Shown here: one piece after another, positions 20,044 to 56,191 of the stretch | Layout of the letters: each line of letters starts with the position of its first letter | How positions within the stretch are numbered: position 1 is the first letter of the stretch | Assembly (NCBI GenBank): GCA_030390025.1 | Contig: CM059432.1 | Location: 6,944,001 to 7,008,000 of the forward strand | Source: Squalus acanthias | Lineage: Eukaryota | Direction of reading: 5' to 3' | DNA: 64,000 bases | Notes under the pieces: model-generated | Database searches by the model: none | What the model was told of the DNA's origin: nothing | The model's input: the letters and a program-made list of their open reading frames with translations, nothing else | Made by a program: the position numbers and the translations under genes

Positions 20044-20425
20044 AAACATAGAAACATAGGAGATAGGAGCAGGAGTAGGCCATTCGGCCCCTCGAGCCTG
20101 TTCCGCCATTTAATGAGATCATGGCTGATCATCCAAATTCAGTACCCTGTCCCTGCTTTCTCCCCATATCCCTTGAGCCCTTTAGCCTCAAGAAATATTT
20201 CTAACTCCTTCTTGAATATATTTAATGAATTGGCCTCAACTGCCTTCTGTGGTAGAGAATTCCACAGGTTCACCACTCTCTGGGTGAAGAAATTCCTCCT
20301 CATCTCAGTCCTAAATGGCTTACCCCTTATCTTTAAACTGTGACCCCTGGTTCTGGACTCCCCCGCCATCGGGAACATCCTTCCTGCATCTAGTCTGTCT
20401 AGCCCTGTTAGAATTTTATAAGTTT
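20044..20425 (-). mobile_element. CR1 3' fragment, same subfamily as 16523-19098
   Basis: Minus ORF MFPMAGESRTRGHSLKIRGKPFRTEMRRNFFTQRVV. Confidence 0.93.
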
Positions 20426-21024
20426 TATAAGTGAAGAGTTCGATGAATTCTAAAAATGTATTCTTTATACGGACGGTTTAACATTTTCTGAGTAAATTGA
20501 CTTATTAAATACTGGAAATAAAAAATAATTATTGATTGCAGCAAATAATTAATTTTAAAATGTGAGCAATTAATTGTGAAATGAAGTAAGTGAATTGAAA
20601 TGATGTGGTGGAAGGAGGCTCGAGTGGCGCATAAACAGAGAGTAATTGGGCTCAGTGGCCTGTTTCTGTGTTGTGTAATGAGCAACCTTGTGAATTATAA
20701 CATTGAGTTTCAAGTTTATTAATTACAAGTTGGACTTCAAATTTGAGATGGCAAGTAACAACAGTAACTTTAAAAACCGAATGCTTTTTGGAAGTAGCTT
20801 AATTTTAAGGTGGGACGAATGACTTCAGTATGACTCAGCAACATATTGAGTAATGCAGTTCTAAAATGGAAGGTGCTGGTATGGTGGGCCTCAGTGGACC
20901 TGAAGAGGTGATTTGGGCGCCCAGAGTGGTTACGTGTGGATTTATAGCGCCTTGGATGGAAACAAAGTGGGGCTATGGAGGAGGGAGGGTGGAACGGAGA
21001 GTCTGGTCTCGCCAATAAATGTTA

Positions 21025-21514: not shown

Positions 21515-22160
21515 CTTTTACCACCTTTTCCGGTCGAGCATTCCAGATCCCGACAACTCTGAGTGAAAAAAATTTCTCCTCATCTCTCCTCCAGATCTTT
21601 TGCCAATGATTTTGAATCTATGACCTCTGGTTATTGACCCGCTCGCCAGAGGGAATAATTTCTCTCTATCTACTCTGTCAAAACCTCTCATCATCTTGAA
21701 AACCTCTATTAGGTCACCTCGTAACCTTCTTTGTTCCAAGGAGAACAGTCCTAACTTTTCCAACCCCTCCTCATAACTGAAGTCCCTCATCCCCAGTAAC
21801 ATCCTGGTAAACCTCCTCTGCACCCTTTCTAATGCCTTGACATCTTAGCTGAAGTGTGGTGTCCAGAATTGTCCATAATACTCCAGCTGAAGCCTAACCA
21901 GTGATTTGTAAAGTTGTAGCGTGATCTCTTTGCTTTTATATTCTATTCTTCTATTTATAAACCCAAATAACTTTGCCAAGTTTTGTATAATCTGCAAACT
22001 TTATAATGCTGCTCCCTACGCCCGAGCCTAGGTTGTTTATAAAAATTGAAGAGAGTAATGGACCCAAAATTGACCCTTGGGGAACACCACTGCAAACTAC
22101 CTCCCAGTCTGAAAAACATCAATCCACCACCACCCTTTACTTCCAGTCACTGAGCCAGTC
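21515..22160 (-). mobile_element. Older CR1 fragment(s)
   Basis: QRRFTRMLLGMR...RRLRGDLIEVFK, with GVPQGSILGP-like sequence near 22070. Confidence 0.8.
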
Positions 22161-29488: not shown

Positions 29489-29880
29489 AATGTCTCAGGT
29501 CGGCGACCCTTCGTCAGAATTGGAAAAAGTTGGAGAAGTAACAGATATTTAAGCAAGTGTGGGGCAGGGAAAGGGGGGAGGGGAGGAAAGAACAAAAGAA
29601 AGGTCTGTGATAGGCTGGGAGGCAGGAGAGAGTAAAAGACAAACGGGATGATAGTGGGAGGCGAAAGGAGATGGTAATGGGACAAGTTAAGAAACTAAAG
29701 ATGAGTCTAGATGAGGTGTAAATGACAATGGCAGAATCCTCAGCAGCTGCCAAGTGAGAGAGAGAGAAAAACCTCGGCTCCCATGTTTTCTTTTATAGGG
29801 AACAGAGACAAAGTGCTTAACGGTTTTGTCATTGGCTGATAGCAAGTTAGCAAGTTTCATAGCGTCCTTTTGAGGTATGG

Positions 29881-29949
29881 TGTTCAAATACGTGTTTGAT
29901 AATCTGACAATAGTGGCAAAGTTAACTCTCATCAAACTTACTGTGAACA
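29881..29949 (-). ncRNA. MIR599: miR-599-homologous hairpin, shortened or degenerate
   Basis: Minus strand reads UGUUCACAGUAAGUUUGAUGAGAGUUAACUUUGCCACUAUUGUCAGAUUAUCAAACACGUAUUUGAACA. The 3' arm UGUCAGAUUAUCAAAC matches human miR-599 UGUCAGUUUAUCAAAC. It sits ~65 nt 3' of miR-875, in the same order and strand as in human. Confidence 0.7.
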
Positions 29950-30014
29950 TTGTAGCTTGTTCAATACTTGTGTCCGAGACATTCATGATGAGGCATCTTC
30001 TAAGCTGATGAACA

Positions 30015-30096
30015 GTCCAGTGAAGCTGCACCTCGGTATTTACAAGCGTGCTTGAATAAAAACGCTTGACAAGACTGAGGTATAGCGTCACCTAAC
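30015..30096 (-). ncRNA. MIR875: pre-miR-875 orthologue; 5p mature approx. UAUACCUCAGUCUUGUCAAGCG (30084-30063)
   Basis: The minus strand folds as GCUAUACCUCAGUCUUGUCAAGCG-loop-CGCUUGUAAAUACCGAGGUGCAGC. The 5p arm is 18/22 identical to human miR-875-5p (UAUACCUCAGUUUUAUCAGGUG) with an identical seed. It lies antisense in a VPS13B intron. Confidence 0.9.
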
Positions 30097-30919
30097 AGCA
30101 AGTGCAGAGTCTGCATTGTATCGAACTGATGACAAATCAATGTTGAAAATGAATCAGATGCTGTGGATGTTTTTTTCTTTCCATAGCTAATCCAATTAAT
30201 ATATATTTTAACATACTGGGGGAGACTTTCTGTCTAAGTGTTGTCACTTACCTCCTGCAGTGCAGAAAATGTAGCATTAGACAAAGTCTCGGTTAGTGAG
30301 GCTGTTAGTTGTTGTTTTCCAATATGGGTTTAACTGGTGTTGTATTGAAAACAGCAATTGTAGTTCATTATTGAATTGATTGTAACCATGCTTCACTATC
30401 CAAATAGTTGCAGGCTGCGCCCACATGGAAGTATCAATAGCACTGCGAGTAGGACTATGTGGGATGCTTGCCACTACAAATGGAGTTTGTTCCTGCATTC
30501 ACCATTGCTCTGTTTTGTAAGAACAGGATGATTAGTAGGTTCCAACACACACACAGCTATCAGGAAAAGGCCCATGTCGGAGAGAGATAGTCACAGTGTC
30601 CGACCTAGGCCTAATTCGCGAGCCATGTATAATGAGGTTAAGGTCTTCCAGAAAAGTACTCAACAAAATTTGTTGTGATTCAGACGACAAACATAGATAT
30701 GAAAGTCAGAGACTCTTTTTTTTAAAATATGGTCATTCCAATCACTTGAGGGGAGCGGTTCCTTAAGCACCACCGAAAACGCGACATCCACCTGAGACGA
30801 GTGATCCTGAGGAAGATCGCGGGCTCATTCTTATCCATGCATGTGAGGGTAAGCAGTTAGAGAGATGGCAACGCCTATCCCACTGGTGGCTTATTCAGGT
30901 ACTTAACATTTCAAGAATT

Positions 30920-31330
30920 ACATCGAACAAACGACGCAGAAACCCCCTGTTCAGCCGAACCAATCCATGTTGCTGTTAATCCTCCAAACGAGCAATAGTC
31001 CTAATCCCTTGAGCCCACCCTTTTCCTATATCCCTTTACTGCCCTTTCCTTCAGGCACCTCTCTAACCTATCACATCTCCAGCAAATCACCCCGTAATCT
31101 CCTTTGGTCTAATGATAGCAGCTCCAATTTTTCAAGTCTTTCTTGGTATTTGTATTTCTTCATACCAGCCAACATCATAGTGCATCTGTGCTGAACTCTC
31201 TCGCTTCCCTCCATATCCTTCCAATAGTCTTCATCTTAAAACTGCACAGAGTACTCAGGTATTATATAGATTCACCATTACATCTTGACTTTTATCTTCA
31301 ATATCTCTTGCCATAAAACCCAGTATTCAA
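30920..31330 (-). mobile_element. Old, degenerate CR1-type fragment
   Basis: Tail-like agaaaccccctgttcagccgaac and aaaactgcacagagtactcagg (antisense of EYSVQF). Confidence 0.55.
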
Positions 31331-31884: not shown

Positions 31885-33620
31885 AGCAACTACAACTTGC
31901 ATTTCTGTAACGCCTTTAATGTAGAAAACTGCCTCCAGACGCTTCACAGAAGCATAATCAGACAAAAATTGGCACTGAGCCTAGGTAGGGTGACTAAAAG
32001 CCTGGTCAAAGAGATCGTAAAGGAGGAGAGAGGTGAAGAGGCGGACAGATTCAGGGAGGGGATATCAGAGCTTCGGGCCCAGACGGCTGAAGAGACATCC
32101 GCCAATATTAGAATGAAGTAAGTAAGAGATGCACAAAAGGCCAAAGTTGGAGGAACACAGCATTCTTAAAGGGTTGTAGGGCTGGGATGAGACTTTTAAA
32201 TTGGAGGTGATGGGGGACTGGAAGCCAGAGTAAGTCATCGAGCTCAGGGATGATGGGTGAGTCTGACTTAATGCAGGTTAATTTGGGTGCAGATAATTTG
32301 GGTGAGCTGAAGTTTATGGAGAATGGGAGACCGGCCAGGAGAGCATTGGCATAGTCAGGTCTGAGGTGTCAAAGACGCAAATGAGGGTTTCGGCAGCGGA
32401 TGGGCCGAGGCAGAGGTGGGTAGGCAGTCTTTGTGATGGAGAGGAATTGGGGTTGGAAACTCATCTCGAGCAAATCGGACGTTGAGGTTGTGAACAGTCG
32501 GTCAACCTGAGACCATTGCGGGGTAAGTGATGGAATCGGTGGCAAGGGTACAGTGTTTGTAGCATAGAGTTATACAGCACAGAAAGAGGCCCTTTGGCCC
32601 ATCATGTCTGCGCCGGCCATCAAGCCCTATCTATTCTAATCCCATTTTCCAGCACTTGGTCCGTAGCCTTGTATGCTATCGCGTTTCAAGTGCTCATCTA
32701 AATGCTTCTTGAATGTTGTGAGGGTTCCTGCCTCTACTATCCTTTCAGGCAGTGAGTTCCAGATTCCAACCACCCTCTGGGTGAAAAAGTTTTTCCTCAA
32801 ATCCCCTCTAAACCTCCTGCCCCTTACCTTGAAACTATGCCCCCTGGTTATTGACCCCTCTACTAAGGGGAAAAGTTCCTTTCTATCTACCCTATCTATG
32901 CCCCTCATAATTTTGTACACCTCAATCAGGTCCCCCCTCAGCCTTCTCTGCTCCAAGGAAAACAACCCCAGCCTGTCCAGTGTCTCTTCATAGCTGAAAC
33001 GCTCCAGCCCAGGTAACATCCTGGTGAATCTCCTCTGCACCCTCTCCAATGCAATCACATCCTTCCTATAGTGTGGCGACCAGAACTGCACACAGTATTC
33101 CAGCTGTGGCCTAACTAGTGTTTTGTACAGCTCCATCATAACCTCCCAGCTCTTATATTTTATGCCTCGGCTAATGAAGGCAAGTATCCCATATGCCTTC
33201 TTAACCACCTTATCCACCTGTCCTGCTGCCTTCAGGGATCTATGTACATGCACACCAAGGTCCCTCTGATCCTCTGTCCTTCCTAGGGTCCTATCATTCA
33301 TTGTGTATTCCCTTGCCTTGTTAGTCCTCCCAAAATGCAGGGAGCAAAGACGATGGTATTGGCCTTCCCCATTTTTAACTGGAAGAAATTGTGGCTGATC
33401 CAGGAGTGGACAAGCAGACTGACAACACAGAAGTTCTGGCGGGGACCAAGAGAGGTGGTGAAGAGGTTGAGCTGGGTGTCCTCAGCCAACATGTGGAACC
33501 TAACGCCGGGCCTTTTGGATGATGTCGCCAAGGGGCAGCATGTAGATAAGGAAGCGGAGGGGGCCAAGCAAAGTTCCTTGGGGGACTCCAGAGGTAACAG
33601 TCCAGGGGACAGGAAGAGAA
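31885..33620 (-). mobile_element. Older L2 (31885-32560 and 33340-33620) interrupted by a CR1 (32563-33335)
   Basis: L2 tail aacttgcatttctgtaacgcc; FHMLAEDTQL (YADDTQL-like) at ~33480; nested CR1 ORF 32636-33301 with RPQLEYCVQFWSP. Confidence 0.85.
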
Positions 33621-52927: not shown

Positions 52928-54156
52928 GACTTACCCTTTAATTAATTAATTAATTAATTAAAATTAAATTAAATGAATCCCACCAATTTCACTTCAATTA
53001 AATGATATACACAAGGGCCCTTTCCCGACACTGGCCTCTGTAAAAAGCCCACGAAAGTGAGTTTAACTACTCTCTGTGCTGCTGCTCTCTCCGCTCCCGA
53101 CACTGGCCTCTGAAACCAATCCCTGCGGGACTCTGCTAGTGACTGTTTCCCGCAAAACCACTGCCATTAGTAACAACCTCCGCCTACGAGAAAGCAACCA
53201 ATTCCTTAACCAACACAAAATCTGCCTGCTTATCCAGAGTTACGCTTTCTTATTAAGTAGCCTTAATTCGGGTCATTTTTATGCAGTGACACACGTTATT
53301 TTAGGAGGCGCAGCAAGTTTGGATGAGAACATTCATCCACATTTGCCTTATGGGATATTCTAATATACAGGAGTTGAGTCCCACTTTGGTAAAACACAAA
53401 TATTTAACCAGCATTTTGGCTATCAAAGAGAAAGTCCAAGAGTATTTTATTGCTTTGTCCTGACCCAGGGTTTAGACTTGATTGCAAACTAATCATCAAA
53501 ACCGCCAACCAAAAAAAAATTGGTAATGCAGCTTATGTTAATTGAGACGAATCTTTTTTCAGTTATACTTCTCTTTAATCTAGCCAAGATTAACTTGATT
53601 TATAAAACAACATGGGTTGTATAACTGACACATATATCAGTTCTTCTGTTTACCATGTCTTAATGTCGAAACATAATATAGTCTTGTTGGAAAATAAATG
53701 ACATCATCCTTGTAATGGGATGACCTGAGGAAACGAGTGAAACATTCTTCTTCGTTTCTCGAATGTTAAACACATCTTGAAATATTTATGGACTTGTATT
53801 TTATAAACAAAATGCTTTTCGTGTACTTTGCGAATTGGGACCACTGGTGCTATTAAACAGCAAATCCTCGTGGTATAAAATGCACAGAATCGTAGAATAG
53901 AATAGTACAGCACAGAAGGAGGCCATTCGGCCCATCGAGTCTGCGCCCGCTCTTCCAAAGAGCAATAGTATTAGGTATGTAGAGTACGCATTTTAAACCG
54001 CTTTTTCAATAACTTTCTTAACTACCCACATCAAATTCATCTAGATATTAAATATGATTGTCTTTTTGATGTAGCATCGCGCAGGATCCTTTTTTTTAAC
54101 CACTATGACAAATGGTTGACCAGACACACAATGCTCACTGGTTTGTGCCCTCACAG

Positions 54157-54360
54157 GAGAGCTCTGAATTTGGGAATACTGCGAGACCCAGGATCAGAAG
54201 TTGAAGACAGACAATACCAGATTGACCTGCAGTCCATCACCATTGGAACCGCACTGTGGGATCAGCTGAAACCTGAAAAGGAAGTTGGCAAAGGAGGGCT
54301 CTGTTCAGAAAATGAAAGGAATTACCAGAATCCTGCCCTCGAATGGAACATGGCCAGCAG
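54157..54360 (+). CDS. VPS13B: Internal coding exon of VPS13B (vacuolar protein sorting 13B / COH1), 204 nt, phase 2-2
   Basis: Acceptor gtttgtgccctcacag|G with branch-like ctcac at ~54134-54138; donor CAG|gtgagt. Encodes RALNLGILRDPGSEVEDRQYQIDLQSITIGTALWDQLKPEKEVGKGGLCSENERNYQNPALEWNMAS, recognised as human VPS13B RALNLGILRDPGSEIEDRQYQIDLQSINIGTAQWHQLKPEKE...ERNSQNPALEWNMAS. Confidence 0.96.
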
Positions 54361-56191
54361 GTGAGTGAGTCTCGAGCAACGCAAGATATTGGCTACAGCT
54401 GCTGCCTCAAGCAAACCTGGAGGCAAATGCAACTGCTATTAGTGAATGCATTCATTTCAGCAGCCTATTAGTGCAATAAACTCTGTGTGAAATCTTCCCT
54501 TTTAATCCCATTTGCTACTCTATATAATAACAAAATGCAACTACTAACAACAGCAGAGTATAGTTTGTTTCACAAACGAGGAAGATCTCACAACTAGTGA
54601 GTGAAATAAACTGGATATTTCACCGTTCCATTCAGTCTTTCCAACAGATGGAGAAACTAAGATACATAGAATCATAGAATATTACAGCACAGAAGGGGGC
54701 CATTCGGCCCATCGAGTCTGCACCGGCTCTTTCAAAGAGCAATCCAGTTACTCCCACTCCCCCCGCTCTTTCCCCATCTTCCTGCAAATCTTTCTCCTAA
54801 GTATTTAATTTGTTTTAATATACGGTTTAATAAATATTTGAATTGGGATAATTACAAGCAGGAATTTCCTCATTGTACCCTGTGAACAATTTGCCATTAA
54901 GGTGACTATCTGCCATTTTGACGTTCCCCATGGCTGGGAGAAAGTGTTAATTTGGCTGTACATTAAATAAAAAGCGAAAAAAACGATTGTAAGAAATCCG
55001 AACTAAAACCAGAGCATGCTGGACAGACACAACGTAATTCTGTCTATATCTGAAAACATATCGATTTTTACATAGAGATTGTTTCTCGGTACTGATTTTT
55101 TGCGAGGCTATTTCAGCTCCATATTACTACATGTTATCTTGAGTGAGTGGCCATATAATGGATACTGAGATACCTGAAAAGAATGAAAGATTTGGTTGTA
55201 GCTAACCTCACCATCAGTAGCTGTGCAAACAATTATACACTTGCCACTTCAATTCCATACATTAGACAAAAAGTGGTATGCGCATAAAGCCCGTGAATAT
55301 ATCATAAGAACATAAGAAATAGGAGCAGGAGTAAGCCGTTTGGCCCCTCGAGCCTGCTCTGCCATTCAATAAGATCATGGCTGATCTGATCTTGGCCTCG
55401 ACTTCCCCGTAGCTCAATATCTGTCTATCTCCGCCTTGAATATATTCAATGACTCTGCCTCCACAGCTCTCTGAGGTAGAGATTTCCAAAGATTCACGAC
55501 CCTCTGAGAGAAGAAAATCCTCCTCATCTCCGTTTTAAATGGGCGACCTCTTATCCTGAAACTGTGCCCCCTAGTTCTAGATTCCCCACGAGGGGAAACA
55601 TCCTCCCTGCATCTACCCTGTCAAGCCCCCTCAGAATCTTATATATTTCAATAAGATCACCTCTCATTCTTCTAAACAACAACAACAACTTGTATTTATA
55701 TAGCGCCTTTAACGTACTCCAATGAGTATAGGCCCAACCTGCTCAACCTTTCTTCATAAGACAACCCCTTCATCTCGGGAATTAACCTAGTGAACCTTCT
55801 CTGAACTGTCTCCAATGTAAGTATATCCCTCCTTAAATAAGGAGACCAAAACTGCACGCAGTACTCCAGGTGTGGTTTCACCAACACCCTGTACAGTTGT
55901 AGCAAGACTTCCCTACTTTTACACTCCATCCCCCTTGCAATAAAGGCTAACATTCCATTTGCCTTCCTAATTACTTGCTGTACCTGCATGCTAACTTTTT
56001 GTGTTTCATATATGAGGACCCCCAGATCCCTCTGTACCGCAGCATTCTGTAATCTCTCTCCATTTAAATAATAATTTGCTTTTTTATTCTTCCTACCAAA
56101 GTGGATAACCTCACATTTTACGACATTATACTCCATCTGCCAAATTTTTGCCCACTCACTTAACCTATCTATATCCCTTTGCAGACTCTTT

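Follow-up and report, generated by a model that had tools for sequence, protein, structure and literature searches.

A probable decayed orthologue of MIR-599 downstream of miR-875 in the shark Squalus acanthias

In a 64,000-nt stretch of the Squalus acanthias genome (assembly GCA_030390025.1, contig CM059432.1, positions 6,944,001 to 7,008,000; hereafter the window, with coordinates counted from its first letter), we found a short miR-599-like hairpin at 29879..29952 on the minus strand, with 74 nt corresponding to the 88 positions of the family model. From its sequence and position, it is very likely an orthologue of MIR-599. We think it probable that this orthologue has decayed into a pseudogene, predicted to give no mature microRNA, beside a miR-875 hairpin that appears intact.

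The Rfam model of mir-599 (RF00991) matches the minus strand at 29879-29952 with 24.5 bits, so that by the gathering cut-off of 94 the hairpin falls outside the family. The match has an E-value of 0.012 when 1 kb is compared with 4227 families, and because the mir-599 family had been named beforehand, the value for this family alone applies, about 3e-6 in 1 kb and about 2e-4 for the 64 kb, a similarity to the family model that goes beyond chance. Among the 10 Rfam matches at E<=10 across the 64-kb window it is the only one to mir-599, and the remnant agrees with the Rfam consensus at 17/24 positions at the 5′ end and 17/24 at the 3′ end (34/48 outer positions, 71%), which together make orthology likely. 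At the gathering threshold Rfam returned no match in the whole window, so default annotation would skip both the miR-599-like hairpin and miR-875. A DNA search showed the remnant stretch to be single-copy in the genome, and neither this search nor the genome-wide mir-599 family search, with 56 candidates scored, found a second, intact MIR-599 copy elsewhere; the locus at 29879-29952 was itself not among the matches of the family search. A pattern scan of JGI metagenomes for vertebrate host DNA with both arms gave two loci, which have no mir-599 or mir-875 match, resemble microbial coding sequence and were rejected as chance. A score 70 bits below the cut-off, in a window where other families reach 23-29 bits by chance, might suggest that the resemblance is accidental or the short form an assembly error, but family and place were named in advance of the single-family estimate for 64 kb. 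In addition, contig X6, which stems from a different sample of the same organism in a separate study, is identical to the window over 29883-30126 (0 differences) and shows that the short form does not come from misassembly; three relatives also span the hairpin without a large insertion. We therefore regard chance or misassembly as hardly credible.

The genomic setting is that of the MIR-599 locus, with the hairpin directly downstream of miR-875, on the same strand and antisense within VPS13B. Between 6.34 and 6.93 Mb, G000:C8 carries VPS13_N exons in plus orientation. The exon L010:2869-3261 has a 92% match in a protein of Scyliorhinus torazame and matches of 51-79% in the 37 further proteins listed; most of these proteins are named VPS13B, and the host gene is therefore VPS13B. 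By tblastn, the exons flanking the host intron are L010:6040-6153, whose end at L010:6153 lies about 10.8 kb outside the left edge of the window, and 54152..54397 on the plus strand of the window, the coding exon that closes the intron. These positions place the miR-875/miR-599-like pair antisense in a VPS13B intron of about 65 kb, which we take to be the same intron that carries MIR599 and MIR875 in human. Human VPS13B, MIR599 and MIR875 fall in one 750-kb bin in Table 2 of PMC9506507, and mouse mir875 and mir599 have one start site in common (PMC7080778). The initial annotation, made from the letters alone, had placed the hairpin on the minus strand about 65 nt downstream of miR-875, antisense in VPS13B; the gap to 30018-30093 is indeed 65 nt, and the plus-strand exons with their tblastn flanks establish the host. 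Its further proposal, homology with MIR599 at a locus older than the shark/bony-vertebrate split, draws support from the Rfam match as well as from position, strand and host intron. The microRNA pair sits in a low-copy island (about 29780-30940) that aligns in every relative covering it and is bordered by high-copy repeats at 29700-29771 and 30950-31230. Elsewhere in the window, the minus-strand open frames 32636-33481, 21518-21844 and 20139-20477 have similar C-terminal sequences, presumably resembling the end of a LINE reverse transcriptase.

The upstream cluster partner, miR-875 (30018..30093, minus), is matched by RF00933 with 53 bits (cut-off 84) at a genome-wide E of 2.5e-8 and is the only locus found; judging from its predicted fold, the hairpin is structurally intact. 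MIR-875 (node Vertebrata) shares with the remnant the cluster, the strand and presumably the primary transcript, as in mouse (PMC7080778), but it is intact here and shows no sequence kinship with the remnant (local score 14). Within miR-875, four sites (30054, 30064, 30070 and 30092) set this organism apart from relatives C, D and G with no pair broken, and at the 5′-arm sites 30070 and 30064 the relatives, not this organism, match the Rfam consensus. About 100 nt upstream of miR-875, in AT-rich sequence, a TAATTG lies at 30193-30198 (minus), which is not above chance (1 found vs 3.4 expected in L001); the mouse mir875/mir599 promoter has a TAATTA site used for PRRX1/2 (PMC7080778).

Parts of the miR-599 stem are well preserved. 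The 5′ strand of the basal stem, UGUUCA (29944..29949), faces UGAACA at 29886-29881 in both the Rfam alignment and the fold, with one basal pair changed on both sides (U-A here vs c-g in the consensus). The start of the 5′ arm, GUUUGAUGA (29929..29937), forms nine pairs with UUAUCAAAC at 29902-29894 (pair probabilities 0.90-0.99), and this helix is the only firm part of the would-be duplex. The 3′ arm, CUAUUGUCAGAUUAUCAAAC, occupies 29894..29913 (minus) and varies among relatives at 29903 and 29911. The basal and core pairs, the 3′ arm and the span of 44 nt from GUUUGAU to AUCAAAC had been read from the sequence beforehand, and the fold returns the basal and core pairs at probabilities of 0.76-1.0.

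Between these ends the hairpin is shortened. The comparison with the mir-599 model covered positions 1-29 and 60-88, the 30 positions between being hidden. Model positions 60-88 fit 29907-29879 without a gap, and positions 25-29 (gcuGa) fit GUUAA at 29926-29922 with two transitions, one GAGAG dinucleotide being set aside. Given this fit, the partner of UGUCAG appears to be mutated, not absent. The initial annotation had described a missing GCUGACA partner; what stands there instead is GUUAAC (29921..29926, minus), by-eye alignment with the model letters suggesting a mutated remnant of the upper-stem motif, and the loss lies further in. There, 14 nt (29908..29921, minus), delimited by the model fits on either side, stand in place of 30 model positions of the distal 5′ arm and loop, so that about 16 nt would have been deleted; going by the human precursor, the surviving 14 nt may comprise the second, 3′ half of the loop plus the first letters of the 3′ arm. 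The upper-stem remnant GUUAAC is shifted out of register by 2 nt in this shark and in relative G; in C and D, where exactly one dinucleotide of the GAGAG run is absent (a 2-nt difference at 29926), it is in register. Compared with MIR-599 (RF00991), the remnant thus has the same place downstream of MIR-875, on the same strand in VPS13B, and keeps the basal stem and the nine-pair core, but it is 14 nt shorter (16 in C and D) and its upper stem is broken by the two transitions and the 2-nt shift. The first reading of the hairpin overall therefore holds in its pairs, arm, span, position and homology and has to be amended for the partner, which is mutated.

Folding agrees with the stem and gives it little stability. 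The predicted structure consists of a 6-pair basal helix, a 4-pair helix and the nine-pair core; beyond that core no pair probability exceeds 0.52, with at most four weak extra pairs. The minimum free energy is -13.6 kcal/mol (z -1.18 to -1.3), 66/500 shuffles fold as well, and with its flanks the remnant has a z of 0.01, whereas miR-875 and the shark's miR-223 reach z -5.67 and -5.35, each with 0/500 shuffles as good. As modelled, then, the remnant's structure appears no better than chance; the stem pairs proposed initially do form, at a stability of shuffle level (z about -1.2). Curated microRNAs are described in PMC11701709 as having arms of 20-27 nt, 19 +/- 1.6 pairs and a precursor of at least 49 nt, and the remnant, at about 44 nt with 9 firm pairs, falls short of these MirGeneDB measures. 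With so few firm pairs (nine in about 44 nt, where curated microRNAs have 19 +/- 1.6 and two arms of at least 20 nt), Drosha and Dicer would likely skip the remnant or cut it imprecisely, while an antisense primary transcript today would still deliver miR-875.

Our comparison of relatives drew on 8 of 21 sequencing runs, each represented by contigs. The hairpin is spanned by contigs of C (X8, about 96% identity), D (X9, about 96%) and G (X12, about 94%), and X7 (B), X10 (E) and X11 (F) leave its middle uncovered; all four organisms whose contigs span it (A, C, D and G) carry the short form. With the listed differences of the relatives introduced (18/20 for G, with a few of C's and D's unlisted), the remnant has z -0.71 in C, -0.76 in D and +1.35 in G, while miR-875 stays at -5.1 to -5.3; no stable hairpin is thus maintained across the relatives (rounded z -1.3 in A, -0.7 in C, -0.8 in D and +1.4 in G). 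By eye, 2/5 substitution events in the remnant break pairs vs 0/5 sites in miR-875. Variable sites number 4/74 in the remnant, 5/76 in miR-875 and 4/59, 6/65 and 2/72 in the flanks; being no denser in the remnant than in miR-875 or the flanks, they show neither constraint nor release. A more distant organism, H (contig X16, about 88% alike, contig depth 4.3), aligns from 30655 down to 29919, where the next 79 letters are unaligned to the window, and this break sits 2-3 nt inside the segment of the proposed deletion. It is as expected if H keeps the long form and could also be explained by an unrelated insertion, and we treat it as a hint.

A second line of evidence on the ancestral state comes from miR-223. 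In the genome, where 56 candidates were scored, the mir-599 model has a single match at E<=10, L002:1501-1583, with 26.3 bits and an E of 3.05, and this is the shark's intact miR-223 (L002:1487-1593, plus strand; G000:C6, about 162.26 Mb), which scores 72.2 bits with RF00664, above the cut-off. Positions 11-29 of the mir-599 model equal the 5′ arm of shark miR-223 at 17/19, AAGCUGA included; each of the two differences has a compensating change on the 3′ arm (G-C vs A-U and U-A vs C-G), and the 3′ arms agree at 12/16 by eye. Counted by eye, MIR-599 thus has the homologous arms with compensatory changes expected of the MIR-223 family. The binomial chance of 17/19 is 6e-9 to 1e-7, or 3e-5 to 6e-4 after 5000 comparisons, for a stretch picked after looking. 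On these grounds it seems fairly likely that MIR-599 descends from MIR-223, and the chances are about even that it is an unrecognised, relocated duplicate of it. Directly, the remnant equals the 3′ arm of shark miR-223 at 15/18 (29908-29891), but this direct link is weak, since in whole-hairpin comparisons of remnant and miR-223 as many as 194 and 267 of 5000 shuffles reached the same scores. Other features set MIR-223 (RF00664, MirGeneDB node Vertebrata) apart from the remnant, namely its own intact locus on G000:C6 with other flanks, loop and linkage group, and MirGeneDB files it as a family separate from MIR-599, as does PMC1832191.

MIR-599 and MIR-223 do not have the linkage of whole-genome-duplication paralogues (groups K vs J; the supplement of PMC8789304 gives Mir-223 as K and Mir-875 as J among chordate linkage groups), and a MIR-223 origin would therefore need duplication to a new site. 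This difference, the poor alignment of flanks and loops, the separation of the families in PMC1832191 and the lack of a mir-875-like hairpin at E<=0.01 in the 20 kb scanned around shark miR-223 would fit a decayed MIR-599 orthologue whose arm likeness to MIR-223 is convergent, in which case the polarity would follow from the motif and organism H alone. We find such convergence rather doubtful in view of the 17/19 identity with two compensatory pairs and of miR-223 being the sole match of the mir-599 model at E<=10 among the 56 candidates scored in the genome. Near miR-223 we also noted, about 5 kb downstream, a hairpin at L013:4202-4287 that Rfam mir-1597 matches with 53.5 bits on the minus and 47.6 on the plus strand (cut-off 93) and that may be a palindromic repeat element. 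About 1 kb upstream, a long near-perfect inverted repeat with weak matches to several microRNA models (L002:357-489) is probably a foldback repeat.

The initial annotation had left undecided whether the hairpin is a vestige or a proto-microRNA; the mutated partner, the motif shared with MIR-223, the pair-breaking changes and the break in H favour decay. As MIR-223 is dated to Vertebrata and the upper-stem motif is shared by Rfam mir-599 and the intact shark miR-223, the full upper stem is likely ancestral, which points to decay and not to a proto-microRNA; an origin of MIR-599 from MIR-223 would mean that its ancestor possessed the whole upper stem, which makes the shark state a derived one. 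The converse, a short ancestral hairpin whose stem and loop were completed by a later insertion in lobe-finned fishes, might be read from MirGeneDB, where Mir-599 is confined to coelacanth, caecilian and amniotes with the node Sarcopterygii, and from the short form in all four organisms that span the hairpin. We judge it very improbable. Those four organisms lie within about 6% of each other, the motif is already there as a mutated remnant and intact in the likely older MIR-223, H breaks at the proposed deletion, and 71% identity would not be expected to persist in a functionless precursor over the more than 400 million years since sharks and bony vertebrates diverged. For a decayed MIR-599, 71% identity at both ends over that time suggests a gene that worked through much of shark history.

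Could the hairpin still be active by a non-canonical route? The about 44-nt hairpin might be cropped with help from miR-875, sliced by Ago2 or yield a shifted 3′ product, and the short hairpin of miR-451 matures independently of Dicer by Ago2 slicing. Like miR-451, the remnant has a precursor of about 44 nt (44 alignment columns for pre-miR-451 in PMC8789304) close behind a canonical microRNA; it keeps the basal stem and nine-pair core, its substitution density is not raised, and it has a UG near the base and a CCUC about 18 nt past the 3′ arm, both common by chance. Ago2 slicing needs a near-perfect stem across positions 10-11, and the stem of miR-451 is near-perfect and highly conserved; in contrast, the remnant has 9 firm pairs, lacks the strictly conserved stem at the slicing site, being unpaired at positions 10-11 in its centroid fold, and varies among close relatives. 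In relative G its fold collapses to 6 centroid pairs at -8.0 kcal/mol, its 3′ arm varies at two sites and its register differs between relatives. Continued activity of this kind thus seems very unlikely to us.

The history best fitting a decayed MIR-599 orthologue would begin in the jawed-vertebrate ancestor, where a full MIR-599 hairpin, probably duplicated from MIR-223, followed MIR-875. Before this shark separated from relatives C, D and G, the distal end of the 5′ arm and some of the loop would have been deleted, and the upper stem would afterwards have been broken by transitions. The MIR-875 cluster is prone to loss: Mir-875 is assigned to the gnathostome ancestor and listed as lost in 5 lineages in PMC8789304 (chimaera, ray-finned fishes, coelacanth, Xenopus and chicken), and the part of that paper's supplement covered here has no Mir-599 entry.

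The published record dates the family later than the shark locus would. MirGeneDB 3.0 gives Vertebrata as the node of MIR-223 and MIR-875 and, as regards the origin to be compared with the shark hairpin, Sarcopterygii as that of MIR-599. In MirGeneDB 2.1, all 53 occurrences of Mir-599 are in coelacanth, caecilian and amniotes, with none in Sto, Cmi, gar, hagfish or lamprey, and all 57 of Mir-875 are in hagfish, lamprey, caecilian and amniotes; the cartilaginous-fish sheets (Sto and Cmi) list Mir-223 and neither Mir-599 nor Mir-875. Mouse miR-599 is barely expressed in E14 organs (PMC7080778). In the ncOrtho study (PMC10359484), some of 18 mainly sarcopterygian families, unnamed in its text, occur sporadically in earlier lineages, and its supplement of orthologues in 402 vertebrates may already list shark Mir-599 or Mir-875. 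Among the titles and abstracts of the openly accessible papers searched, none describes a miR-599 from a shark or ties miR-599 to miR-223, and neither microRNA question is touched on in the main texts of PMC12688097 and the MirMachine 2 preprint.

Vertebrate phylogenies make use of microRNA families as dated characters, and the MirGeneDB 3.0 supplement has MIR-599 arise in lobe-finned fishes. If true, the shark orthologue would shift the origin of MIR-599 from Sarcopterygii to the older node of jawed vertebrates, and ray-finned fishes and chimaera, which lack it, would then have lost it. If MIR-599 also came from MIR-223, a 'new family' would be a shifted paralogue, which affects how family gains are counted. 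The effect is a specialist correction that involves no new mechanism, and the locus would offer a readable case of a microRNA dying beside its living cluster partner.
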